From: a virus
IMG/VR virus record: IMGVR_UViG_3300045988_062316
DNA: 62,384 nucleotides
Strand: one strand, 5' to 3'
Position 1 is the stretch's first letter, and every line of letters starts with the position of its first letter. This document shows positions 5,167 to 60,155 of the stretch, piece by piece. The notes under the pieces were generated by a model. The model was not told where the DNA came from. It made no database searches and saw only the letters and a program-made list of their open reading frames with translations. The position numbers and the translations under genes are program-made.

Positions 5167-6096
5167 ATGAGCACGATACGCTACATCAGCCTGTTCAGCG
5201 GAATCGAAGCCGCCACCGTCGCATGGCACCAGCTCGGGTGGAAGCCAATCGCATACGCGGAAATCGAACCATTCCCAAAAGCCGTGCTCAGACAACACTA
5301 TCCGGAAGTGCCAGATTTAGGAGACATGACCAAAGTTGACTGGAAACAATACCACCATGCGGCAGATGTCGTTGTGGGAGGAAGCCCCTGCCAGGCATTC
5401 AGCATCGCCGGACTCAGGAAGGCTCTGGACGATCCACGCGGCCAGCTCATGCTCGAATATCTCCGAGCTTGCGCAGAAATTGATCCGGAATGGATCGTCT
5501 GGGAGAACGTGCCCGGAGTGCTGTCGGCTGAACGCGGACGGGCTTTCCGGTCGCTCCTTGAAGCCGTGGCCGAACTCTGGCCTGATGGGGGGGGTGCATG
5601 GCGAGTGCTGGACGCTCAGTTCTTCGGTGTGGCCCAACGCCGCGAACGTGTGTTCCTTGTCGTCAACACTAGAGACTGGCGACGTGCCGCCCCGGTACTT
5701 TTTGAGCGCGAAAGCCTGTGCTGGGATCATCAGTCGAGCCGAGAGAAGAGGAAAAGCCTTGCCGGAGGAACTGCTGGCGGCGTTGGAAACGCAGATCCAG
5801 GCATTGGAAACTTGACCCACGGTGAGAACCAGTCTCGGAGAGTGTACTCGTCTGACGGAATCGCCCCGGCATTGCAGTCTCGTGAGAATGGTGGGCAGGA
5901 TCAGTCGGCTGTCATGTTGGACTTCCACCAGCAGGATGGAAGGTTCAAGGTGAAATCGAGAGAGAGAAGTGATGTGCAGTGCAGTGCGGACAGTCAATCG
6001 AACGCGGCACGGTGCTTTAATCTCGCGCCGACATTGATGGCGCATGCGGGGAAAGACGCCCCATTCATCTATCCGACAGCCGATGGGAGAGACTAA
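5167..6096 (+). CDS. C5 cytosine DNA methyltransferase, N-terminal part (motifs I-VIII plus part of the TRD)
   Basis: FSGIEAA (motif I), GGSPCQAFSIAG (IV), ENVPGVLS (VI), QRRERVFLV (VIII). Its TAA stop overlaps the next ATG as TAATG. Confidence 0.85.
   Translation: MSTIRYISLFSGIEAATVAWHQLGWKPIAYAEIEPFPKAVLRQHYPEVPDLGDMTKVDWKQYHHAADVVVGGSPCQAFSIAGLRKALDDPRGQLMLEYLRACAEIDPEWIVWENVPGVLSAERGRAFRSLLEAVAELWPDGGGAWRVLDAQFFGVAQRRERVFLVVNTRDWRRAAPVLFERESLCWDHQSSREKRKSLAGGTAGGVGNADPGIGNLTHGENQSRRVYSSDGIAPALQSRENGGQDQSAVMLDFHQQDGRFKVKSRERSDVQCSADSQSNAARCFNLAPTLMAHAGKDAPFIYPTADGRD
5587..5594 (+). repeat. G8 homopolymer inside the methyltransferase ORF
   Basis: gat-ggg-ggg-ggt encodes D-G-G-G. Position confirmed against the ORF frame. 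Confidence 0.9.
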
Positions 6097-6449
6097 TGGC
6101 CCTTACCTTCAAGATACGCGGCGGCGGAACGGGGGGGGGTAAGGGATTCCTGGGACAGGAAGAGCTTTCCGCCACACTCAGCACGCACAACGACCAGTCC
6201 CTATACATGGAAGAGGATTCGATGAAAGGTTTAACAGTTCGCAGGCTCACCCCGTTGGAATGCGAACGGCTCCAAGGATTCCCTGATGGGTGGACTGACA
6301 TTCAATGGCGCGGCAGGGAGCACGCGCCGGACGGGCCACGATACAAGGCGTTGGGGAATTCAATGGCCGTTCCGGTCATGAGATGGATCGGTGAAGGAAT
6401 TCAACTCGTTGAAGACAACAAGGAACTTTTCAAGAAGGAAACCAAATGA
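6096..6449 (+). CDS. C5 cytosine DNA methyltransferase, C-terminal part (TRD remainder, motifs IX-X)
   Basis: RRLTPLECERLQGFPDGWT (motif IX) and GNSMAVPVMRWIG (motif X). Confidence 0.85.
   Translation: MALTFKIRGGGTGGGKGFLGQEELSATLSTHNDQSLYMEEDSMKGLTVRRLTPLECERLQGFPDGWTDIQWRGREHAPDGPRYKALGNSMAVPVMRWIGEGIQLVEDNKELFKKETK
6131..6139 (+). repeat. G9 homopolymer inside the methyltransferase C-terminal ORF
   Basis: acg-ggg-ggg-ggt encodes T-G-G-G. Position confirmed against the ORF frame. Confidence 0.9.
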
Positions 6450-50210: not shown

Positions 50211-51745
50211 TTTGCGCTGACGAGAATGGCGTGCCGTTCCACGCGACTTCCGATTGCGTGTTGGATTGCGCGTGGGGGTCTGGTGAGAATGATTTCGAAC
50301 TGACGTTGTATGACGGTACCGTGCTGCCCGACCGTGGTCTTGTCTATATTGATGGGACCGAGGTTGGCGGCATCGTCGATCATATGAAGGACGAACTGTC
50401 GGATGGCGTGAGTGTGGTCACGTATTCCGGTCGGAGTTGGCATGGCATGTTGGCCGGTAAGGTGTTGCAGCCGGATTCAGGGCAGGATTATCTGAAGGTG
50501 TCCGGCCCTGTGAATCAGGTGTTGTCGAACCTGTTGGCCCGTATTGGCTTGTCTGACGTGTTCAAGGTCCGCGCGGATTCCACGAAAACCATTCCAACGT
50601 TCCAGTTTGACAGGTATTGCACCGCGTATGATGGCATCCGCAGGATGCTGGCAGCGAATGATCTGAAACTCATGTTTCAGGAGGTTGACGGCACGGTATG
50701 GATGTATGCCCAGCCGATTGTCTCCCATGATGATACGGTCGATTCTGATCTGGTTGATTTTTCCATCACGAAGGATTACCGTCGTACCAACCATATGATC
50801 GGCTTGGGCAAGGGTGATTTGAGGAATCGTCTTGTCGTCCACTATTATGCGGATGGTTCCGGCAAGGTGTCCAATACTCGCACGTTCGGTGGTCGTGACG
50901 AAATCGCCGCAGTCTATGATTATTCGTCCGCCGAGAAGGACGAGTTGGACAAGCAGACGAAGAAGCAGTTGCAGGATTTGCAGGGCGCTGGCGCTGTTGA
51001 TGTGACCGTGCATGACGGCTTGTCTTTGGATGTTGGCGATAGGGTCGCGGGCTGCGATCATGTTACCGGCCTGACGGTTACCGCCATCGTGTTGAAGAAG
51101 ATCGTGAAACTGTCTGGCGGCTTGCTGTCCGTATCGTATGAGGTTGGCGACGCGGCTTCCTCGAAGACGGAATATTCGAATTATACGAGTTCCTCTTCCT
51201 CTTCGTCTTCCGGTTCGGCTGGCGGTGGCGTGTCTTTGACGGCTGGCCGTGGCCTGTCGATTTCAGGCGGCACGATCAACGCTGAGGTCGCTTCCGAGGA
51301 TTTGGATTCCGTCAGACAGACTGCCGAGTCGGCTAACAGGACGGCTTCCGGGTTCGCGGCGCAGATCGGCAAGGCGAATCAGACCGCCGAGGATGCGAAG
51401 AACGTCGCCGATGCGGCCAAGAGCGTGGCCGACAGCGCCAAGTCGGGCATGATGACCGATTCCGAACGGTCGAAGCTCGCTTCGGTCGAACGGGGCGCGA
51501 ACGCCTACACGCTGCCGAAGGCGTCCACGGACGTGTTGGGCGGCGTGAAGGTGGACGGTTCCACGATCGTGAGCGTGGATGGCGTCATCAGCGCGCATGT
51601 CGGCGACGGCGCTTCCGGGAAGGCCGTGTTCCCGGTCGGCTATGTGGTGATGAACACGACGGGCGTTGACCCTTCCGTTGATTTCGGCGGCACGTGGAGG
51701 CAGTTGCCTTCGCTTGGTTGTTCCATGTTTGAAAGGATAGGCTAG
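50198..51745 (+). CDS. Tail-associated/baseplate protein (Gp37-like) with fibre-repeat motif
   Basis: 515 aa, Ser-rich linker, YTLPKASTDVLGGVKVDGSTI. Confidence 0.6.
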   Translation: MVDLICADENGVPFHATSDCVLDCAWGSGENDFELTLYDGTVLPDRGLVYIDGTEVGGIVDHMKDELSDGVSVVTYSGRSWHGMLAGKVLQPDSGQDYLKVSGPVNQVLSNLLARIGLSDVFKVRADSTKTIPTFQFDRYCTAYDGIRRMLAANDLKLMFQEVDGTVWMYAQPIVSHDDTVDSDLVDFSITKDYRRTNHMIGLGKGDLRNRLVVHYYADGSGKVSNTRTFGGRDEIAAVYDYSSAEKDELDKQTKKQLQDLQGAGAVDVTVHDGLSLDVGDRVAGCDHVTGLTVTAIVLKKIVKLSGGLLSVSYEVGDAASSKTEYSNYTSSSSSSSSGSAGGGVSLTAGRGLSISGGTINAEVASEDLDSVRQTAESANRTASGFAAQIGKANQTAEDAKNVADAAKSVADSAKSGMMTDSERSKLASVERGANAYTLPKASTDVLGGVKVDGSTIVSVDGVISAHVGDGASGKAVFPVGYVVMNTTGVDPSVDFGGTWRQLPSLGCSMFERIG

Positions 51746-51996
51746 TGAAGTCTGACGGTTACTCGAAGTACGTGTGCGACAAGTGCGGCAAGACCGCCTA
51801 TGTCGCCGCTGGCGATACGGAGGCTCGTGAATGGTACACCGTGCGCCGCTATTCGGCTGGCAAGGCGACCCGCATCGCGGATGATGTGGCACCTGACATC
51901 TACGAATTGTGTTCCCAATGCAATGCGTCGTTCATGACGTTCATGCAGCAGGATGACGCTTCGTTCGAAGCATGGTTGAAGGAGGTCGGACAGTGA
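51745..51996 (+). CDS. Small zinc-ribbon protein
   Basis: CDKCG...CSQC. 83 aa. Confidence 0.5.
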   Translation: MKSDGYSKYVCDKCGKTAYVAAGDTEAREWYTVRRYSAGKATRIADDVAPDIYELCSQCNASFMTFMQQDDASFEAWLKEVGQ

Positions 51997-52808
51997 CCAT
52001 CGAACTGGTTGACGGCAAGGCCGGCACGGCTCATATTTCAAGCGAGGACAAGGCGATCATCCATCAGGCCAAGTTCTCGAAGTCCGACGTGGTGTTCGAC
52101 TGGGGTGACGCGTTCAAGTGCACGATGAGTTCGTCCAACAGGGCGACGATCGGCACCGGCTGCGCGTCGATTCAAGGTTTGGACTGGCATATCACGTCGG
52201 CGGAATCGGTGACGATCTCCAACGGGTCGCAGGGCATGAAACGCAATGACATCATTTGCGCGCATTACAATCGTAACCCCAAGACCGGTAATGAGCTGGT
52301 GGAGTTGGTCGTGTTGAAGGGTTCGCCGAATGCGACTGCTGCCGCTGACCCGAAGGTTCCGTCAGGGAAGATATTGTCCGGCGCGGTTGACGCGTACATG
52401 CCTCTCTGGCGTATTCCGTTGGATGGCATCACGGTCGGTACGCCGGTGCGCCTGTTCACGCCGAGGGGGGCTTTGTGGGATTCCGTAACCCAGATGGATG
52501 ACTGGGTCGTAGTCGCGCGCCCTAGAGGCTATGACGCCTACTGCGCCACGTCCATGATCTTCAAGCCGAACACGAACACGTCAATAGACATCAAGCTGCC
52601 GATCGAAGCGGCAAGCTGGAATTCATACTCCGTCGAATTGCAGTTGATGAACGACAATAAGAACAAAGTGCCGTCGTTCAACAACATTTCGATGATCACG
52701 AACAGTCATTCGGCAAAAGGATTTCAACTTGTCGCATGGAACGCCAGCGGCATGTCGCTGAGCTATCGCATCGCCGTGACTGTCCACGTCTTCGACGCGA
52801 AGCAGTAG
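51993..52808 (+). CDS. Receptor-binding tail protein with a shufflon-variable C-terminus (currently cassette A)
   Basis: GTG 7 nt after AAGGAGG. Recombination core at 52481-52493 lies inside the ORF (codons S-V-T-Q). Confidence 0.7.
   Translation: MTIELVDGKAGTAHISSEDKAIIHQAKFSKSDVVFDWGDAFKCTMSSSNRATIGTGCASIQGLDWHITSAESVTISNGSQGMKRNDIICAHYNRNPKTGNELVELVVLKGSPNATAAADPKVPSGKILSGAVDAYMPLWRIPLDGITVGTPVRLFTPRGALWDSVTQMDDWVVVARPRGYDAYCATSMIFKPNTNTSIDIKLPIEAASWNSYSVELQLMNDNKNKVPSFNNISMITNSHSAKGFQLVAWNASGMSLSYRIAVTVHVFDAKQ
52481..52493 (+). repeat. Shufflon site A (TTCCGTAACCCAG)
   Basis: One of four copies of the core TTCCGTAACCC. Confidence 0.85.
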
Positions 52809-53105
52809 TTTTCCGTAACCCAGCAGTGGAAGCCGCCGTATACGAACGACAGCCTCACTCTGTGTCGGGTCGGACGCATCGTCACGATCAACGGCAACGT
52901 CAAGTTCACTAGCAGTGGACAGCAGAACTACTCGGCGGCGAATGAGACCATCCCTGAAGCGTTCCGTCCGCTCGCCGACATGAGCATCATCGCGTTCCCG
53001 TCCTGCGGTTTCAGCCTGCTTGTCGCGCGTGACGGGAAGGTGCAGATGCTGGGCGACCCGAGATTCGCCTACTCCACGGCGCACGGCTGTTGGTTGGCGG
53101 CCTAG
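52809..53105 (+). other. Silent start-less C-terminal cassette B
   Basis: Begins at site B in the S-V-T frame and reads FSVTQQWKPPYTND...HGCWLAA*. No start codon or RBS. Confidence 0.7.
52811..52823 (+). repeat. Shufflon site B
   Basis: Identical 13-mer. Shares the 18 nt TAGTTTTCCGTAACCCAG with site C. Confidence 0.85.
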
Positions 53106-53458
53106 ACGAATTCCACACCATCAGGCACCGGAATGATCTTCGAGAAGCATTGGACGATATCGGCCGAACCCACGCCTCCGATAAGCGTCACCGACCCGTT
53201 AGTGTTCCACCTCGCCTGTTTGCCATACGCGATGCCAGCCACGTTCGCGACGCACCCAAGACCGACCGTTCTGGAGGGCTTCACGCCCTCTTCGAACAGC
53301 CAGACAGAGTAATCGCCGACTTTCACGGTGCTTCTGAACGAAGACAGGTCCACGAAAATCAGACCGTCTTTGACCGTGATGGTGTTCGAAGCGCCATAAG
53401 AAGCCGGAACGAACGATGCGGTGTCCTGCCATCGCAGTTGGCATGTCTGGGTTACGGA
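53102..53458 (-). other. Silent start-less C-terminal cassette C
   Basis: Reads SVTQTCQLRWQDT...PDGVEFV* from site C. Its stop overlaps the cassette B stop in CTAG (53102-53105). Confidence 0.7.
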
Positions 53459-53459
53459 A
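53447..53459 (-). repeat. Shufflon site C (inverted)
   Basis: CTGGGTTACGGAA is the reverse complement of the site A/B 13-mer. Confidence 0.85.
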
Positions 53460-53467
53460 AACTATCC

Positions 53468-53761
53468 TCATGGGATCGGATAGCAGAGCGAACCGACGCA
53501 ACCCTGATTGCTGCCAGCGGCTCCCATGTTCGCACATCGGATGGTGCCGTTCGGATTAACGACGAGCATTCTTGCCGTTTGCCCGTTCGACACGCACACC
53601 ATCGCATTGACTTCGACCGGAGGGCGCAGTTCGACGGGCAGCACGTATTCGCATTGCACTGAATCCCAACTGCCATTACCGATATTGCCGGCGTATTTGA
53701 CCAGCATCATCATGCCGGTGCGGATGACCGTGAAGCCCTTCGCGTTGTACAGGGTTACGGA
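53468..53761 (-). other. Silent start-less C-terminal cassette D
   Basis: Reads SVTLYNAKGFTVIRTG...SLCYPIP* from site D. Confidence 0.7.
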
Positions 53762-53762
53762 A
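53751..53762 (-). repeat. Shufflon site D (inverted; core GGGTTACGGAA)
   Basis: AGGGTTACGGAA lies 6 nt from the recombinase stop codon. Confidence 0.8.
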
Positions 53763-53767
53763 TGCTA

Positions 53768-54640
53768 TCAGCAGGTCAATATGAGTTTCTGCCACGCTTT
53801 CTGCATGTCCTTGAGGACGCTCAGATCGGGCTTCAAATAATACCGTGCGGTGGTTTGGATGTCGGAGTGTCCGAGCTGCCGTGCGACCACGCTGATGTCG
53901 GTTCCGGCCTTGATCGCCAACGTGCCGAACGTGTGGCGCAGGTTGCGTGGAGGCACGCAGGGGAGTTTCATGCGCCTGCACCAACTGCGGTAGTGGTTTG
54001 CCACTTGGTTCGCGTTCAGACTGCCGACCAGCCGGCCAGTCTTCATGCCGTGGCGTAGTTCCGCCAAGCGTTTGACCGCGAACCGTGGCAATGCGACGGT
54101 ACGTCGGCTCAGATCGGTCTTCGGTTCGGTCACGGTCTCATGGCCCGCGACCCACTGCACCGACCTTTTCACCGTGACGGTGCCGCGACGCAAATCCAAG
54201 TCGCCCCATTCCAAGCCGACCGACTCGCAGCGACGCAATCCCGCACACACGGACACCAATAGCCACGCTTCGAGCGGATGCCCGTAGAAGCCTTTCAATA
54301 GTCGTCGGACTTCCGGCGCGGACAGTACTTGCGGCTCGTAATGCCGTAGATGCGGCAGGCGTATCTCGCGTCTGGTCACGTCATTGTCGGACAAACCGCG
54401 TTTGAACGCGAGTCGCAGTATCGCGCGGAACACCGCGTAGGCCTTGCGTGCCGCTCCCGGCCTGTCGAAGGAGTCCAACCATGATTCGATATCCGCCACG
54501 CTGATCGCGTCCATGTCCCTTCCGCTCCATTGCGGGAGGATATGGCAATTCAGGGCGCTTTCATAGCCTACTTTGGTGCATTCGCGGAGTTTCGCACATG
54601 AGGGTTTCCAAACGGTGGTCACGAATGTGTCGAAAAGCAT
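53768..54640 (-). CDS. Shufflon-associated tyrosine recombinase (Rci/Rin-like)
   Basis: AGLRRCESVGL, LRHTFGTLAIKAG, LGHSDIQTTARYY. ATG at 54640 after GGAAAGGAA. Confidence 0.8.
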   Translation of the reverse strand: MLFDTFVTTVWKPSCAKLRECTKVGYESALNCHILPQWSGRDMDAISVADIESWLDSFDRPGAARKAYAVFRAILRLAFKRGLSDNDVTRREIRLPHLRHYEPQVLSAPEVRRLLKGFYGHPLEAWLLVSVCAGLRRCESVGLEWGDLDLRRGTVTVKRSVQWVAGHETVTEPKTDLSRRTVALPRFAVKRLAELRHGMKTGRLVGSLNANQVANHYRSWCRRMKLPCVPPRNLRHTFGTLAIKAGTDISVVARQLGHSDIQTTARYYLKPDLSVLKDMQKAWQKLILTC

Positions 54641-54752
54641 TGGTTCCTTTCCAATTCTGTTGAATAATCCCACACATCGTCATGTTGCCGTTGGACGGGC
54701 GTGTGTGTGGGTTTTCCCATTGTTCCATATCCCTGTTTTTTAGGAGGATGTT

Positions 54753-55655
54753 TTGACTCAGATCAAATTCGATTTCGGCCATCCAAGCGCGGATGGCGTC
54801 GCGGTTTTGGCCGGAGAGCTGGTGCATGTGGTTCCGACCGGCCGGTTCAAGGTCGGCAAGCGCATCGTCGTGCGCGACTCTTTCGACGTGCGACTGTCGG
54901 AAGACGGCACCGCCACCGTTGACGTTACGCCGACCGACAACACGTTCGCCTACGAGGTGACGGTAGGCGAATCGCCGGATGCCTGGCGTTTCGTCCGCTG
55001 CGTGCAGGTGCCGGACTCGAGCACGCCCGTGGCGTTCGCCGATCTGGTCGATGTGGACTCGAGTACTTTGGCTCCGGCGCTTAACACTGGTGCGGCCTTG
55101 ACCTACCTGCTGGCGTCCAGCTTGCAGGATGCCCAGGCTTTGAGCGCGGCGAATCCGGGTCAGATGGTGTTTTATCCGGAGGGTCAGGCTAAGACGGTGG
55201 CTTCCCAGATTCTGGAGGATCTGACCGGTGCTCGTGCCGTGGTGGAGTCGCAGTCGGCTGCGGCTGCTCAGGCGGCTAATGCGGCGCAGGCTTCGGCTGC
55301 CGGTGCGCAGGCGGCGAGCGTGCAGGCTGCGGATGCCGTGCAGGCTGTGTCGGAGCAGACGGCTCAGGTGTCGGCCAACGCCGCAGCGGTGCAGTCCGTC
55401 GCCGATAGCATCAACGAGTCCAAGACGGTCGTGGAATCCCATGCGACCGAGGCTCTGACCGCGATCGACGAGGCTGTCAGGCAGGTGCAGGACAAGGCTT
55501 CGGATGCGACCGGCGAGGATAAGACAGATGATAAGGCCGGTGGTGATGATAAGGCGTCTGAGGATAAGGCCGACACGGCGGAATCCGCGCCCGATACAGC
55601 GGAGTCCAAGGACGCCACCACGGATGCCGCAGCCAACGGTTCGCAGGAGGCCTGA
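54753..55655 (+). CDS. Tail fibre-like protein with an Ala/Gln-rich coiled coil
   Basis: TTG after AGGAGG. Contains AAAAQAANAAQASAAGAQAASVQAADAVQAV. Confidence 0.6.
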   Translation: MTQIKFDFGHPSADGVAVLAGELVHVVPTGRFKVGKRIVVRDSFDVRLSEDGTATVDVTPTDNTFAYEVTVGESPDAWRFVRCVQVPDSSTPVAFADLVDVDSSTLAPALNTGAALTYLLASSLQDAQALSAANPGQMVFYPEGQAKTVASQILEDLTGARAVVESQSAAAAQAANAAQASAAGAQAASVQAADAVQAVSEQTAQVSANAAAVQSVADSINESKTVVESHATEALTAIDEAVRQVQDKASDATGEDKTDDKAGGDDKASEDKADTAESAPDTAESKDATTDAAANGSQEA

Positions 55656-55657
55656 CA

Positions 55658-56281
55658 ATGGTCGTGCTATTGAACGGCGCGAGAGTTGGCGAACCCGTCA
55701 TCGGCGTGGACGGCCAGCCGGTCTTCTTGAACGCGCTTTACGACGGCGTGCAGGTGTGGCCGCCAGCCGCCGAAACACTTGTGGACGTGTGGCTCAAACC
55801 GGTGGACTTCCAGGCTCAGCCGCTTTACGCCGACCATCCGGAAGTCAAGGTGGCCGCTCAGAAGGTTTTCGCCGACGGTCACATCGAGGACGCCAGTCTG
55901 ACGCTCACCATCGCCGATTCCGCGGTGGCATCGATTTCGAACGGCACGGTGAGCTTCGTGAGCGACACCACGAATTTCCTCACCGTCCTCAAACAGGACG
56001 CGTTCAACGCCTGCCACGTGTCGATCTCCGAAGGCGATAAGGCTTTGGGCGCCAAGCAGATCCTCGTCCAGTCCGACCAGCCCAATACGGCTCCGGTCGG
56101 CAGCCTGTGGTGCCGCACGGAGAAACTGCATAACGGGTTGAAATACTATACGGGGTCGGTCGGGTCGGATGCGAATGTCATGTGCTTCCTGCTCGACCGT
56201 ATCCGCGAGGTGTGGCGCAGGGAATGGGATGATTGGAAGCTTTTGACGGGAAAGGAATTGGAGAATCATGCAGAGGATTAA
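55658..56281 (+). CDS. Hypothetical tail-associated protein
   Basis: 207-aa ORF starting 3 nt after the upstream stop. Confidence 0.55.
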   Translation: MVVLLNGARVGEPVIGVDGQPVFLNALYDGVQVWPPAAETLVDVWLKPVDFQAQPLYADHPEVKVAAQKVFADGHIEDASLTLTIADSAVASISNGTVSFVSDTTNFLTVLKQDAFNACHVSISEGDKALGAKQILVQSDQPNTAPVGSLWCRTEKLHNGLKYYTGSVGSDANVMCFLLDRIREVWRREWDDWKLLTGKELENHAED

Positions 56282-56654
56282 CCGGTATCCGTCACCATTG
56301 ACACCATTGGTCAATGATGGGACAGGCGACATCAGTCACGGCGATTATGATGTCGCAATCGACAATCTTGAGGCTGGCACTTATGTTTTCGCGGCTGACA
56401 TTCAAAACAGTGGGACTCAAACCGGCGTGAATGTAATGTTGTTCGATTCTGACTGGAACCCCCTTTTCTCTTCCAACAAGATTGGTCACGTCCAGACGAC
56501 TTTCACGCTCAAAAAGCCAGACCGTGTTCGCATTCGGCCAAACCAGACCGGTGTGACAATCAGCAATGTCAACGTGGAGCGCGCCGACACGTACGCTCTC
56601 ACTTCGGGGGGGGGTCTCCCGGCTTTCTTCACCAAGGACACGGCAGCATACTGA
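56268..56654 (+). CDS. Paralog P1 of a five-member small tail-distal protein family
   Basis: Starts MQRINR and ends ADTYALTSGGGLPAFFTKDTAAY. Contains a G9 tract. Confidence 0.6.
   Translation: MQRINRYPSPLTPLVNDGTGDISHGDYDVAIDNLEAGTYVFAADIQNSGTQTGVNVMLFDSDWNPLFSSNKIGHVQTTFTLKKPDRVRIRPNQTGVTISNVNVERADTYALTSGGGLPAFFTKDTAAY
56606..56614 (+). repeat. G9 homopolymer in P1
   Basis: tcG-GGG-GGG-GGt encodes S-G-G-G. Coordinates derived from the ORF frame. Confidence 0.85.
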
Positions 56655-56675
56655 CCTCAAGGCTGGTGGTCGGCC

Positions 56676-57086
56676 GTGAGAATCGTGAATCAATGGCTGG
56701 ACCCGCACTGCGCAAACAAGGTCGGCACTTGGAGTTCGATACCGGGAGCTGTCACCATAGCGAAGGACGGCGACCACTGGGAATACACCCTTCCCGAGGG
56801 CTCATCCTTCATCCCGAATCGGAAGTCCGGATGCATGATGATGCGGCTCAGCCCGTCCAGCTCATGGGACTCCATACTGCCGGAGCGGGCGGATACGTTG
56901 CTCATGGAGAGTGGGGTGTGCGTCTTGGACACCACCAAAGAAGAAGCAAGGAATGTTGTTGGCATCCGTGCGGTTGTCGATGCCAAGACCACGGTGACTG
57001 GCATGTGCGCCGTCGATCTGGACGAATGGCCGATACTGCGGGAGGCTGGAGCGCTCGTCTTCGCATCCGACACCGCGCCCTACTAA
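56676..57086 (+). CDS. Paralog P2
   Basis: GTG start. Starts VRIVNQW and ends LVFASDTAPY. Confidence 0.55.
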   Translation: MRIVNQWLDPHCANKVGTWSSIPGAVTIAKDGDHWEYTLPEGSSFIPNRKSGCMMMRLSPSSSWDSILPERADTLLMESGVCVLDTTKEEARNVVGIRAVVDAKTTVTGMCAVDLDEWPILREAGALVFASDTAPY

Positions 57087-57108
57087 ACGATGGTTTGGGG
57101 GTGGCGGC

Positions 57109-57501
57109 ATGAGACGGACGAATCTGTGTGCAAAACCGGCTGAGACAATTGATGCATTGGGCGGCGATCCGTCCAATTGGCGGGACTTCAGAAGCGGAAG
57201 CTCCATGTCTTTGCAGCCGGGACGATACGTCGCCTCATGCGATGTCACGGAGCGCGGAAGCGCAAAAGCGAGAATCCAATACTGGGGTGAGATTCATCAC
57301 GTGCAGTTGGGTGAAGTCTATGGTGCCGTCATCGGCGTCAACGTGATGCGGTTTGACCTTCAGCCCGATGCCGACACATGTCATTTTTCCGTCTGTGACT
57401 GTAGGGTCACGGACTTCATCATCGAATCCGCCGACACTTACGCCACTGCCGCGGGGGGGGGGCTTCCGAGCTTCTTCACCGCGCAGACCGCACCGTACTA
57501 G
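57109..57501 (+). CDS. Paralog P3
   Basis: Starts MRRTNL and ends ADTYATAAGGGLPSFFTAQTAPY. Contains a G10 tract. Confidence 0.6.
   Translation: MRRTNLCAKPAETIDALGGDPSNWRDFRSGSSMSLQPGRYVASCDVTERGSAKARIQYWGEIHHVQLGEVYGAVIGVNVMRFDLQPDADTCHFSVCDCRVTDFIIESADTYATAAGGGLPSFFTAQTAPY
57453..57462 (+). repeat. G10 homopolymer in P3
   Basis: gcG-GGG-GGG-GGG encodes A-G-G-G. Coordinates derived from the ORF frame. Confidence 0.85.
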
Positions 57502-57525
57502 TCCCGTCAAGGCGGGTGGTCGGCG

Positions 57526-57921
57526 ATGATCGTGCGGAATCCGGCGAAGACCACCAAGACCATCCTGTCGAACGGCAATGCATTCCCCGGCACCGTGGAA
57601 GGGCAGACCTACACGGCGACCGAGGACAATCAGCTCTTGCGGTTGTGGGGCAACATCGTCCTTCCACCGCTGACGGGCGGATACATATGTTCGGCTGTCA
57701 TCGAGGATGTGCAGGGGCGTGTGGAGCCGACGAGCAACGATGTCACGTTCAGCGGCGGTCTGGCAACCACGGAGAACAAAAACCTGTGGAGCAAAGGATT
57801 GCTCATGGGCGCCGGTGCGAAGGTCCTGCTCGCATGCCGAGGAATCTTCTCCGCCGACGATTGGACTGTCCTCCAGGCGGTCGGCGTCAACTGCTTCGAC
57901 AAGGATACGGCACCCTATTAG
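57526..57921 (+). CDS. Paralog P4
   Basis: Starts MIVRNP and ends NCFDKDTAPY. Confidence 0.55.
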   Translation: MIVRNPAKTTKTILSNGNAFPGTVEGQTYTATEDNQLLRLWGNIVLPPLTGGYICSAVIEDVQGRVEPTSNDVTFSGGLATTENKNLWSKGLLMGAGAKVLLACRGIFSADDWTVLQAVGVNCFDKDTAPY

Positions 57922-57949
57922 CCCTCGCCCTCAGTTTGGGGGTGGTCGC

Positions 57950-58312
57950 GTGAGAATCAGGAATCTCTACGATCCGCCGACCCTGAAGGACCGTGATCCG
58001 GTTGTTCCGTGGGTGCCGAAGGACATCATGACGGCCAGCGCGAGGATCAGCGACGAGGGGTGTGAGATAACCGTCACCGGCGATGGTGTCGGCTGGCTGT
58101 ACCCGCCGCTGCAGGACGGGCTGGCGAAGGTCGTGTGGGAGAAGGCGGACGGCGGCAACCTGATCGGTATCAGCGACAACGATACGGTGGCCATTTACCC
58201 CGGTGTTACCGTGCTTGTCCGCCTGTGCGGTTACGAGGATGCCTCGCTCGTGACCATGCTCAAAAACCTCGGCCTGCCGCTCGTGTTCGCCGCCTCTGAC
58301 CACCCGTATTAG
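57950..58312 (+). CDS. Paralog P5
   Basis: GTG start. Starts VRIRNLY and ends VFAASDHPY. Confidence 0.5.
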   Translation: MRIRNLYDPPTLKDRDPVVPWVPKDIMTASARISDEGCEITVTGDGVGWLYPPLQDGLAKVVWEKADGGNLIGISDNDTVAIYPGVTVLVRLCGYEDASLVTMLKNLGLPLVFAASDHPY

Positions 58313-58321
58313 ACAAACCAC

Positions 58322-58347
58322 AGCCCCGCCGTGTGCGGGGCTTTCCT
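58322..58347 (+). terminator. Rho-independent terminator ending the tail operon
   Basis: AGCCCCGC-cgtgt-GCGGGGCT followed by TTCCT. Confidence 0.65.
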
Positions 58348-58362
58348 GTAAGGAGATGTAAT

Positions 58363-58752
58363 GTGCTGCAGAATTTTCTAGCCGGTTTTGGCGGTGTGGG
58401 TGGCGCGTGCGCGCTCATCACGCTCGGCCTTAAAGTCTGGCCGGGCGCTTTGGACGCGTTGGCGACTGGCCTGTATTCGCACGTGCAGCCGGAACGCCTG
58501 CCATACGATTCGCCGCTCTCGCAGCATTTCGCCAAAACCAGAATGCTAGGCGAACGCACCGAGAAATTCGACGACCGCATGGACGAACTCTGCCGCGACA
58601 CCATCAAGAACACGATCATCAGCCTGATCTACGGCGACCAGTCGCACGACCATTCAGAGGCCGTCCGATACGAATTGACGAAGCTTGAGAAATTGGACGC
58701 GCGATGCTGGATCGTCAACGCCGCCGAAAAATACTTGGAGGACCGGCAATGA
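58363..58752 (+). CDS. Membrane protein of the lysis cassette (holin-like or accessory)
   Basis: GTG 7 nt after AAGGAG. N-terminal TM segment FLAGFGGVGGACALITLGL. Confidence 0.45.
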   Translation: MLQNFLAGFGGVGGACALITLGLKVWPGALDALATGLYSHVQPERLPYDSPLSQHFAKTRMLGERTEKFDDRMDELCRDTIKNTIISLIYGDQSHDHSEAVRYELTKLEKLDARCWIVNAAEKYLEDRQ

Positions 58753-58835
58753 CGCATCTCACGATCGTAGGCGGCATATACCTGCTGCTGCTCGCGCTCG
58801 TCATCATATTCAATCATGGTGCGCACCGGCATTGA
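58749..58835 (+). CDS. Tiny TM peptide (28 aa)
   Basis: ATGA overlap with the upstream gene. Hydrophobic IVGGIYLLLLALVIIF. Confidence 0.3.
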   Translation: MTHLTIVGGIYLLLLALVIIFNHGAHRH

Positions 58836-58916
58836 TTTTCATATTAGTTTTCAAAGCCATCCCGATTCGGGATGGCTTTTCTATTGCCCCTTGACTTGGG
58901 GCGGGAAGGAGAGGAT

Positions 58917-60155
58917 GTGGGCATCCTCAACAACAAAGGCAAGCCGAAGCACAAGCGTCTGCGTCGGCATATCGGCAAGCCGTTGACCGCGTTGGCGGCG
59001 GTGTTGTGCGTCGCCGTCGCGCCGGTCGCCAGCGCGAATATGAACGTGATCGACGTTTCCGGCTGGCAGTCCGCCGACGTGACGCGCGTGGTGGACGCCG
59101 ACGCGGCCATCGTGAAGATCACGGAGGGTGGCGGCTACGTGAATCCGTCTTGGCGCAGCCAGACCGATTGGGCGCGTCAGACCGGCAAGGCTTGCGGCGG
59201 CTACCATTACGCGGACGGCGGCAACGTCACGGCGGAGGTGAACCATTATCTCAACCAGTTCAACGGTTATGTGGGCCAGTGCGTGCTCGCGTTGGACTGG
59301 GAGTCCAACGGCAACGCCGCTTGGGGCAACGGCGACTGGGTGCGCCAGTGGGTGAACCAGGTGTATTCGCGTACCAAGGTCTGGCCGATCGTGTACGTGC
59401 AGGATTCCGCCGTGTATCAGATTCCGTCCGACGTGCGCGCCCATTGCATGCTGTGGAAGGCTCAGTATGCTTCCATGAACGCGACCGGCTGGCAGTCCAC
59501 TCCGTGGAATGCTGGCAGCAAGGGCGAGGGCATGGTGCAGTATGCTTCCACCGGCTATCTGAACGGTGTCGGCCCGTTGGATTTGAACCTGTTCTTCGGT
59601 GAGCGTGACGCATGGCAGAAGATCGCGAACGGTGATCGTGGCAAGACGAATGCCGAGGTGAGGCATGATCCGGTCAGGCCGCAGGTCACTGCCACGCCGG
59701 ATTACGATGACATGGCCACGAAGGTCATTCGCGGCGTGTATGGCAACGGCAATGAGCGTCGTCAGGCTCTTGGCGGTGCTTATGACAGGGTGATGGCGAT
59801 AGTTAACCAGCGTCTTGGCGGTTCTGGCGTCGCGCCTGCCGCCGTGAATTGCGGCAGCGTATGCGTGACGGTACGCAGTGGCGACACATTGAGTTCCATT
59901 GCGGCCCACAATGGCGGTTCTTGGAACCAATACACGGGATACCGTTCGGGTAATCCGAACGTCATCTACGCTGGCGAGATCGTGTGCCGTCGCACCGGCA
60001 CGGGCACGGTCGCCACCGGTGGACGGTACGTGGTTCGTTCCGGCGACACCCTCGGCGGCATCGCCGCATATTACGGGGTCAACATGTACAGCATCCACGG
60101 GTATCGTTCCGGCAATCCGGCGTTGATCTATCCGGGCGAGACCCTCTACTGGTAA
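58917..60155 (+). CDS. Secreted endolysin: signal peptide, GH25 muramidase domain and two LysM repeats
   Basis: Signal-like KPLTALAAVLCVAVAPVASA, then NMNVIDVSGWQ. LysM repeats VTVRSGDTLSSIAAHNG and YVVRSGDTLGGIAAYYG. Confidence 0.8.
   Translation: MGILNNKGKPKHKRLRRHIGKPLTALAAVLCVAVAPVASANMNVIDVSGWQSADVTRVVDADAAIVKITEGGGYVNPSWRSQTDWARQTGKACGGYHYADGGNVTAEVNHYLNQFNGYVGQCVLALDWESNGNAAWGNGDWVRQWVNQVYSRTKVWPIVYVQDSAVYQIPSDVRAHCMLWKAQYASMNATGWQSTPWNAGSKGEGMVQYASTGYLNGVGPLDLNLFFGERDAWQKIANGDRGKTNAEVRHDPVRPQVTATPDYDDMATKVIRGVYGNGNERRQALGGAYDRVMAIVNQRLGGSGVAPAAVNCGSVCVTVRSGDTLSSIAAHNGGSWNQYTGYRSGNPNVIYAGEIVCRRTGTGTVATGGRYVVRSGDTLGGIAAYYGVNMYSIHGYRSGNPALIYPGETLYW

Follow-up and report, generated by a model that had tools for sequence, protein, structure and literature searches.

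Length-variable poly(G) tracts connected in three frames to downstream start codons in a small-gene array of a Bifidobacterium temperate phage: a candidate phase-variable tail module

Five small open reading frames (ORFs) follow one another at positions 56268 to 58312 of the virus record IMGVR_UViG_3300045988_062316, a DNA stretch of 62,384 nucleotides that was analysed at its full length and is called the window here, and they raise the question of what an array of short genes with similar ends does between the tail and lysis genes of a temperate phage. In this work we present a computational analysis of this array and of its relatives. Its central feature, overlooked in an earlier note on the same DNA, is a pair of hypermutable poly(G) tracts together with a wiring of all three frames behind them to downstream starts. 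With a probability of roughly 0.6 we read the array as a phase-variable contingency module of tail-associated binding proteins in a temperate siphophage of Bifidobacterium.

The genes, named P1 to P5, are assigned by their sequences to the layout A-B-A-B-T, with P1 and P3 forming family A and P2, P4 and the terminal P5 forming family B. Each A gene carries one tract, whose length modulo 3 sets one of three frames downstream, called S, M and L. The elements of the array are as follows.

56268 to 56654, + strand: P1, A-type, 128 aa, starts with MQRIN and ends with KDTAAY; S state
56606 to 56614, + strand: poly(G) tract 1 (G9), in P1; G9 gives S, G8 or G11 gives M, G10 gives L
56615 to 57112, + strand: L-frame path from P1, crosses all of P2; its TGA (57110-57112) lies in the P3-start ATGA (57109-57112)
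56657 to 56679, + strand: A-to-B spacer, repeat D4, with a GGTGG Shine-Dalgarno-like element; ends with GTGA at 56676-56679
56676 to 57086, + strand: P2, B-type, 136 aa, GTG start, VRIVN at the N-terminus, ends with SDTAPY; frame +2 stop-free
57093 to 57125, + strand: B-to-A spacer, repeat D2; GTTTGGGGGTGGCGGC and the P3 start ATGA
57109 to 57501, + strand: P3, A-type, 130 aa, starts with MRRTN and ends with AQTAPY; S state
57453 to 57462, + strand: poly(G) tract 2 (G10), in P3; G10 gives S, G9 gives M, G11 or G14 gives L
57463 to 57953, + strand: L-frame path from P3, crosses all of P4; its TGA (57951-57953) lies in the P5-start GTGA (57950-57953)
57507 to 57529, + strand: A-to-B spacer, repeat D4; ends with ATGA at 57526-57529
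57526 to 57921, + strand: P4, B-type, 131 aa, starts with MIVRN and ends with KDTAPY; frame +2 stop-free
57934 to 57966, + strand: B-to-T spacer, repeat D2; includes the P5 start GTGA
57950 to 58312, + strand: P5, terminal T-type, B-like, 120 aa, GTG start, VRIRN at the N-terminus, ends with SDHPY

Both tracts encode Gly-Gly-Gly directly 5' of the last 12 codons of P1 and P3, so that P1 consists of an N-terminal MQRIN..P motif, a predicted beta-sandwich core and a C-terminal ADTYALTS-GGG-LPAFFTKDTAAY. Because both tracts of the window are in the S state, five intact ORFs are visible in it. P5 is devoid of a poly(G) tract; a longer ORF at 57707-58312 is merely the P5 frame with an upstream ATG.

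How stable are these tracts? A survey of 52 related loci, all from Bifidobacterium prophages or gut metagenomes, provided 72 tracts of 7 to 14 G, most often 10. State S was found in 24, M in 18 and L in 30, counts indistinguishable from uniform (chi-square 3.0, 2 degrees of freedom), and seven of the nine two-tract combinations were observed, the window being S,S. Of the 27 tract pairs that have at most 4 mismatches across 800 nt of flanks, 18 are unequal in length. Two of the related loci (numbered from L001 on), L003 and L004, agree over 12.3 kb except for a single tract G and an offset of one base where the locus ends, and locus L007, with flanks near-identical to the window, has G8 (M) in tract 1 and G14 (L) in tract 2. 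The same variability is visible in databases, where family A proteins diverge in the C-terminus exactly from GGG while family B lengths are constant. Family A entries fall into length classes of 128-130 aa (in frame), 136-139 aa (M, ending with ..KAGGRP or ..KAGGRR) and 153-185 aa (L); in-frame variants with GG, GGG or GGGG are present as well. As in simple sequence repeat contingency loci, the tract is intragenic and at least 7 nt long, its length is polymorphic in near-identical genomes, and the change alters the reading frame.

All 51 of the 51 LPxFF..TAPY tails are immediately preceded by a pure run of at least 7 G, even though GGG makes up only 11% of glycine codons in the late genes; selection therefore keeps the run in place. 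A third A subtype has its tract 3' of the TAPY motif (..FTALTAPYAAVPD-Gn), and there the switch would alter only the end point of translation, leaving the core of A untouched. Taking these data together, we consider it highly probable that the tracts are hypermutable switches under selection.

In the public gene calls for loci L002-L005 and L008, products of the L and M states figure as single genes 162-351 aa long, with 282, 344 and 351 aa among the examples, so that database entries of the family mix true proteins with frame-shifted read-throughs.

Each tract was then followed downstream in all three frames, and one pattern was present in 70 of the 72 tracts; of the two exceptions, one is due to a contig edge and the other to a variant N-motif. 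In frame S the tail consists of the 12 conserved residues LPxFFTxxTAPY, with the stop 21-25 nt 5' of the next start. In frame M the tail has ~20 aa and terminates at the TGA inside the NTGA that carries the B start codon; in the window these ends are GTGA at 56676-56679 (P1 stop and P2 GTG start) and ATGA at 57526-57529 (P3 stop and P4 start). Frame L stays open for 144-177 codons across the whole B gene, and its stop falls on the NTGA start of whichever gene follows B. The L tail of P1 in the window has 165 aa and ends in the context ATGA with MRRTNL next, and that of P3 has 162 aa and ends in GTGA with VRIRNL next (the ORF listing shows them as 56666-57112 and 57516-57953). The conserved NTGA at both the M and the L ends, in the same 70 of 72 tracts, is the stop/start overlap characteristic of translational coupling. 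In locus L029 (3051 onward) an L tail of 290 codons, seemingly spanning two genes, also ends on a GTGA start.

An open frame of this length calls for comparison with chance. P2 and P4 have no stop in frame +2, against 3.6-5.9 expected from synonymous-codon shuffles (probability of zero stops ~0.001-0.0025 each). For P2 alone the figures are 4-5 expected stops and a probability of ~0.002, and for P4 a probability of ~0.001-0.0015. P1, P3, P5, U207, U300 (two genes directly 5' of the array, described below) and the gene 3' of it contain 3-13 such stops, P5 having 3. Eight B representatives with less than 60% identity all have an open frame +2 (summed log10 P -12.3), and no stop interrupts the frame in any of 59 distinct B genes, whereas only 1 of 47 A bodies and none of 36 terminal genes is open in it (Fisher 5e-27). 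The open L frame is no compositional accident. Synonymous divergence (dS) is 0.53 for B and 0.13 for the adjacent A. As dS of B is not lowered, the L frame is kept open without conservation of its peptide, and its appearance is that of a conduit and not of a protein.

The sequence around the starts fits the same arrangement. The NTGA overlaps depend on a second codon that begins with A: array genes have AGA or AGG at this place 95 times and CGN a single time, while in six large late genes AGA accounts for 4% and AGG for 18% of arginine codons; the first array gene, which no tract precedes, has CAG, CGG or AAG there. That all three frames are functionally accommodated appears nearly as probable as selection on the tracts themselves. 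Each array gene is preceded by a Shine-Dalgarno-like element (GGTGG or GGGGGTGG). RNA folding at the four junctions gave energies no better than shuffles (z ~0), with no sequestering or stimulatory structure, and the idea of hairpins that sequester the starts of B and the next gene or promote slippage was dropped. A terminator-like prediction at the P1 tract proved to be merely the G run pairing with a downstream CTCCC.

Turning to the origin of the array, the earlier note had described five ORFs of 120-136 aa with their own starts and Tyr-terminal ends as paralogues built from a duplicated two-gene unit. The ORFs, all on the + strand, their N-termini and all five C-termini were recovered as described, and a repeat search found the claimed spacer similarities as D4 (56657-56679 versus 57507-57529, 87% identical) after P1 and P3 and as D2 (57093-57125 versus 57934-57966, 79% identical) after P2 and P4. 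In Smith-Waterman comparisons against shuffles P1 and P3 reach z=17 at 36% identity, P2-P4 z=6.7 and P2-P5 z=4.2, and all A-versus-B pairs stay at z<=2. Paralogy thus holds within each of the two families, while A and B are alike at their terminal motifs only. A profile-profile alignment (hhalign; 31 A and 29 B sequences) paired just the last 24 residues, with a probability of 41% (ERADTYA..GGGLPxFFtxxTAPY versus DLDEWPIL..GALVFAADTAPY), and as the alignment is confined to these residues, homology of A and B across their cores was dropped. What the two families have in common is an N-terminal M-R-x-x-N..P peptide and a C-terminal motif of a helix plus tail.

The duplicated unit itself was borne out by the relatives. 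The 52 loci obey the grammar (A-B)n-T with n=1 or 2, P1-P3 and P2-P4 are homologous, and the copy-number variation that the earlier note had proposed to look for was thereby found; the T gene, of P5 type, closes every complete array and is well conserved. A subtypes of 128, 130, 167 and ~200 aa and B subtypes of 123-139 aa are combined mosaically across loci. These many cassette combinations suggest that spacers and terminal motifs may double as recombination joints. By eye, the spacers (..AAGGCNGGTGGTCGGC-NTGA and ..TTGGGGGTGGCGGC-ATGA) seem better conserved than the gene cores in L001-L051. Family B has hundreds of database homologues of constant length, and the ratio of nonsynonymous to synonymous divergence (dN/dS) is ~0.5 for both A and B, two observations that support the ORFs as coding. 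Homologues of the five ORFs come from Bifidobacterium longum, B. pseudocatenulatum and human-gut metagenomes, all annotated 'hypothetical'.

What might the encoded proteins be? An AlphaFold model of P1, built from a 31-sequence alignment, has a predicted local distance difference test (pLDDT) score of 76, with a beta-sandwich core at residues 11-110 (pLDDT 77-92). The first 10 and the last 18 residues, which are conserved, score below 50 and are predicted to be disordered, as expected of peptides that would become ordered only on a partner; the suggestion that the conserved termini belong to the fold was not borne out. Foldseek matches of P1 are weak, with template modelling (TM) scores of 0.35-0.51. 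Among the best are 8xmz, a porphyran-binding carbohydrate-binding module (CBM; E 7e-4, TM 0.49), and CBM4, 6, 16 and 22 as well as a collagen-binding domain, GOLD and TNF/C1q jelly rolls. In a viral library (TM <=0.51) the matches were domains of tail fibre, distal tail, neck-passage, TpeX, host-specificity and minor tail proteins. For P2 the model (pLDDT 56) was too poor for a fold search. Jelly-roll or CBM-like modules, as the earlier note had proposed, may thus be encoded here in view of the P1 sandwich and its weak matches to CBM, jelly-roll and tail domains, while a match to a curated family is lacking: none of P1-P5 matched Pfam, PHROGs, NCBIfam or PADLOC, and searches for CBM or receptor-binding protein (RBP) family membership in Pfam, PHROGs, NCBIfam and PDB sequences gave no match either. 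This agrees with the earlier remark that no described system is recognised in the layout.

Wider searches gave few relatives. Related A and B subtypes had no match in Pfam, neighbours of P1-P5 none in PADLOC, and profile searches against PDB sequences returned noise only. Among 50,697 deposited phage genomes (blastn and tblastn) no relative of the array, of P2 or of U207 was found, a 38-nt match near the lysis genes being the only hit. No relatives of the family A profile were confirmed in GTDB species-representative genomes, and an exhaustive profile search against 1.8 billion representatives yielded only 37 clusters; large multi-domain hits in that search (cupredoxin/SoxE, on a short strand motif) were treated as spurious.

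The gene neighbourhood gives further indications. The late genes of the window have the order of a Bifidobacterium-type temperate siphophage: terminase, portal, an ORF of tape-measure size, Dit/Tal-like genes, a Rin-type shufflon, U300, U207, the five small ORFs and then the lysis side. Terminase, portal and the 1894-aa tape-measure-size ORF were judged from ORF size and order and are to be taken as putative. Downstream of the array come a 129-aa gene, a lysin and an integrase, which places the array at the distal end of the tail module, immediately 5' of the lysis genes, in agreement with the position beyond the tail genes that had been noted before. The flanking features are listed below.

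54753 to 55655, + strand: U300, a fibrous, Ala/Gln-rich, minor-tail-like protein that accompanies the array
55658 to 56281, + strand: U207, 207 aa, without family match
58322 to 58342, + strand: GC-rich hairpin, immediately 3' of P5; AGCCCCGC-CGTGT-GCGGGGCT
58363 to 58752, + strand: 129-aa gene with a hydrophobic N-terminal stretch and a strong AAGGAG Shine-Dalgarno sequence

U300 matches PHROG 28754 (E 5e-29) and has a weak match to phrog_6614 'minor tail protein'; its homologues lie 5' of the array in L001-L008. In the same loci homologues of U207 with 79-90% identity adjoin the array on its 5' side, and in the window the 3' end of U207 overlaps the P1 start by 14 nt. The hairpin at 58322-58342, with a folding z-score of only -1.7, is possibly a weak terminator or attenuator between array and lysis cassette. 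The 129-aa gene, whose product was judged by eye to be possibly membrane-associated, comes after the array in most complete related loci; elsewhere the check failed or the contig ended. A search of Rfam with positions 54000-59000 on both strands gave no match.

The Rin-type shufflon is located 2.5 kb 5' of the array and has four TTCCGTAACCC sites at 52481, 52811, 53449(-) and 53752(-), two per strand, with a core one base off the published rix repeat TTCCCTAACCC (PMC6109161). A XerC/D-like tyrosine recombinase gene (53768-54673, - strand) adjoins the alternative RBP 3' segments, which are flanked by the four sites. These sites are restricted to 52481-53762 and none was found in the array, whose genes are all co-oriented, so that the array was rejected as a part of the shufflon. 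It is also present in loci with no recombinase among the called genes of the ~6 kb upstream (a 175-aa minus-strand ORF in L001 and L006 was left out), and accompanies homologues of U300 and U207 instead. The association of array and shufflon, implied by the earlier description of the array as lying after the recombinase and fibre genes, is thus incidental. In the same region an 83-aa ORF (51745-51996, + strand) lies between the Tal-like gene and the RBP gene; its CDKC...CSQC pattern appears zinc-ribbon-like by eye.

From the fold, the position after ever-present tail-like genes, the elevated dN/dS and the mosaicism of cassettes we infer that the array proteins are most likely tail-tip accessory or receptor-binding modules. 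They would be small beta-sandwich proteins with divergent cores, possibly binding glycans or other receptors, and with shared terminal peptides that most likely serve for docking. That they are virion tail or host-recognition modules is a view towards which fold and gene position make us lean by a small margin.

The proposed mechanism is as follows. The run of G7-G14 in each A gene would slip during replication of the prophage, and its length modulo 3 would pick the outcome. In S the full-length A protein with the conserved tail would be made. In M the A protein would get a scrambled tail of ~20 aa, and terminating ribosomes would be delivered onto the B start; an NTGA stop/start overlap is the classic arrangement of termination-reinitiation coupling. 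In L ribosomes would cross B out of frame and reach the start of the following gene, and B would probably be occluded or lowered. Two tracts would then provide nine expression states, and induction of a lysogen population would release virions with differing protein complements, which would amount to bet-hedging on host range on top of the neighbouring Rin shufflon. The re-routing of translation of B and of the next gene by tract state is put forward tentatively, with the odds somewhat below even. The full form of the proposal is held no more firmly: the tracts might act as three-position ribosome-routing switches (release before B, onto B, or across B to the next gene) that give up to nine heritable, reversible virion surfaces, with the B frame kept open solely as a conduit.

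Several points weigh against a phase-variable tail module with ribosome routing. Tract variation is known between assemblies only, and homopolymer errors are possible, although tracts that differ by 3-6 G, and the very wiring, speak against assembly error alone. Since B genes have Shine-Dalgarno-like elements of their own, they may be translated whatever the tract state, and the junctions gave no RNA structure that would sequester a start. The open L frame could have been selected just to avoid polarity or mRNA decay, and in a weaker version of the proposal the wiring merely shields downstream expression from polarity upon slippage, which accounts for the open frame and not so readily for the exact NTGA overlaps. 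Structural likeness to CBM and tail modules is weak, with a TM of no more than 0.5, and the P2 model cannot be relied upon. None of P1-P5 matches a family annotated as a virion component, and the tblastn search of deposited phages, which covered P2 and U207, found no relative of either; the structural role is accordingly drawn from gene position and fold. Finally, near-uniform S, M and L counts fit neutral drift in silent prophages equally well.

Other explanations of the same data must be weighed as well. Slippage of RNA polymerase or ribosomal frameshifting on the G run could yield all three products from one template at a set ratio, in the manner of tail-chaperone G/GT frameshifting, the wiring then serving their simultaneous synthesis. 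Every frame is accommodated, as would be expected if all were used, runs of 9-14 identical bases are long enough to slip (reviewed in PMC5009743), and near-uniform S/M/L at the DNA level would be tolerable if expression averaged the frames. We regard such recoding as unlikely, as DNA tract length varies strongly among near-identical loci, the studied G-tracts of the host genus use replication slippage (PMC9187656) and stimulatory RNA structure was not detected at the junctions; the two processes are not mutually exclusive and can coexist. A quite different suggestion is that the overlapping frame itself encodes something, the L product (A core plus ~160 residues from the B alternative frame) being a functional protein. 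Its frame does stay open across B genes of only 37-100% identity. The alternative-frame peptide is nevertheless free to vary, as the undiminished dS of B indicates, and its Arg/His/Gly-rich composition resembles out-of-frame sequence; a conserved overlapping protein was rejected on the dS evidence, and we see very little chance for this explanation.

It could also be argued that nothing is programmed here, that the prophages are decaying, their G runs being ordinary hotspots of mutation or errors of assembly and the frameshifted copies pseudogenes. G tracts of bifidobacteria are inherently unstable (PMC9187656), two thirds of the tracts are off the canonical frame, and prophage late genes are silent in lysogens. 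This explanation is already disfavoured and very improbable in our estimation: decay would not preserve an uninterrupted G run in all 51 A genes when synonymous codons are available, nor an overlapping frame that is stop-free in all 59 distinct B genes and in none of the 36 terminal ones, nor conserved NTGA overlaps on AGA/AGG second codons, AGA being rare, and the remainder of each gene is intact, with dN/dS of ~0.5. The position next to lysis genes gives more room to a non-virion function, in which phase-variable lysogenic-conversion, superinfection-exclusion or anti-defence factors would be placed between tail and lysis genes. Moron genes are often found beside lysis cassettes, no structural-protein family matched, P2 and U207, the pair searched by tblastn, had no relative in deposited, characterised phages, and G tracts in a methyltransferase gene of the window indicate that contingency tracts are not restricted to tail genes. 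Against this, the array genes are co-oriented, tightly packed and overlapping with the tail-like U300 and U207, their constant companions, no evident signal peptide or transmembrane segment was seen in the P1-P5 sequences, PADLOC had no match, and the best viral matches of the beta-sandwich are tail and host-recognition proteins. This reading seems to us about as unlikely as recoding, and the phase-variable tail module remains preferred.

The methyltransferase just mentioned is a C-5 cytosine DNA methyltransferase (5167-6448, + strand; Pfam PF00145, E 1e-39) that appears split into ORFs 5167-6096 and 6096-~6448 with a TAATG stop/start overlap. Its runs of G8 (5587-5594) and G9 (6131-6139) are the only other long G runs of the window, and it may be a second contingency locus of the same element. 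A poly(G) tract in the methylase gene of phage BPP-1 is mentioned in a preprint (10.1101/2025.10.21.683753).

Individual elements of the array resemble systems already described. At the lic loci of Haemophilus influenzae alternative starts in different frames give strong, weak or no expression, and as in the array, repeat number modulo 3 has three outcomes; the lic repeat is 5' and selects among starts of one gene, while the array tract is 3' and would select termination sites on different cistrons. The fixed slippery site of the tail-chaperone G/GT frameshift likewise differs from the array, whose DNA tract varies from 7 to 14. Closest in host and tract are the sortase-dependent pilus genes of B. 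breve, in which replication slippage of an intragenic G-tract acts as an ON/OFF switch (PMC9187656). In either case, and in the same host genus, an intragenic run of ~8-14 G shifts the frame of a surface-interaction gene (presumed in the array). The array tract, in contrast, is in a prophage late operon near the gene 3' end, and its three frames have conserved end points on downstream starts instead of an ON/OFF truncation; switching was demonstrated in B. breve, and length differences between loci are what is known for the array. Coupling through ATGA and GTGA overlaps occurs in many bacterial and phage operons (surveyed in PMC3711429). The M and L frames end in the same manner on an NTGA holding the next start, and unlike in ordinary coupling the overlap would be used in only two of three states, with one path crossing a whole gene out of frame.

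Phage-borne tracts have been described too. Poly(G) in RBP genes of Campylobacter Fletchervirus was reported by Sorensen 2021 (Cell Rep 35:109214), as referred to in PMC10877375 and in 10.1101/2025.10.21.683753, a preprint which also notes a tract in a PB1-like baseplate gene and describes T2 and T4 as having contingency loci. Such loci share with the array homopolymer tracts borne by a phage, heterogeneous progeny and host-recognition genes, the latter two being proposed for the array. The phages are unrelated, being lytic myoviruses of a Gram-negative host, the array proteins showed no similarity to any described family, and in the portions consulted a multi-gene array, stop-start wiring or an open overlapping frame is not mentioned for them. 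The carrier of the array is a temperate actinobacteriophage, so slippage can build up during lysogeny. Rin shufflons are known from dnaJ2-integrated bifidoprophages, and the paper on these prophages makes no mention of tracts or frameshifts (PMC6109161). The Rin, Gin, Cin and Min inversion switches resemble the proposed function in reversible, heritable variation of tail proteins in a prophage; the array, unlike them, has no recombinase sites, and its mechanism would be slippage rather than inversion. Evolved Dit, neck-passage, TpeX and BppA/BppL-type decorations are, like the P1 model, small beta-sandwiches of the distal tail region, from which P1 differs in showing a TM of only 0.35-0.51 and no sequence similarity, and the array in consisting of stand-alone cistrons with conserved terminal peptides. 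Poly(G) contingency tracts in phage genes and G-tract switching in the host genus are thus known. A literature search found no equivalent of a homopolymer switch combined with stop-start wiring and a conserved open overlapping frame, nor any account of ribosome routing of the kind proposed here.

The finding has a practical side, as array genes are regularly annotated wrongly, either as fused genes of 137-351 aa or as truncated proteins. If the proposed reading is true, contingency loci extend beyond ON/OFF truncation to a 3' homopolymer with all frames wired to downstream starts, a compact combinatorial coding of expression in which an alternative frame is selected for passage and not for its peptide. 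Temperate phages of Bifidobacterium would then have a second, slippage-based layer of diversification beside the Rin shufflon, which may bear on the scarcity of permissive hosts for induced bifidophages (PMC6109161).

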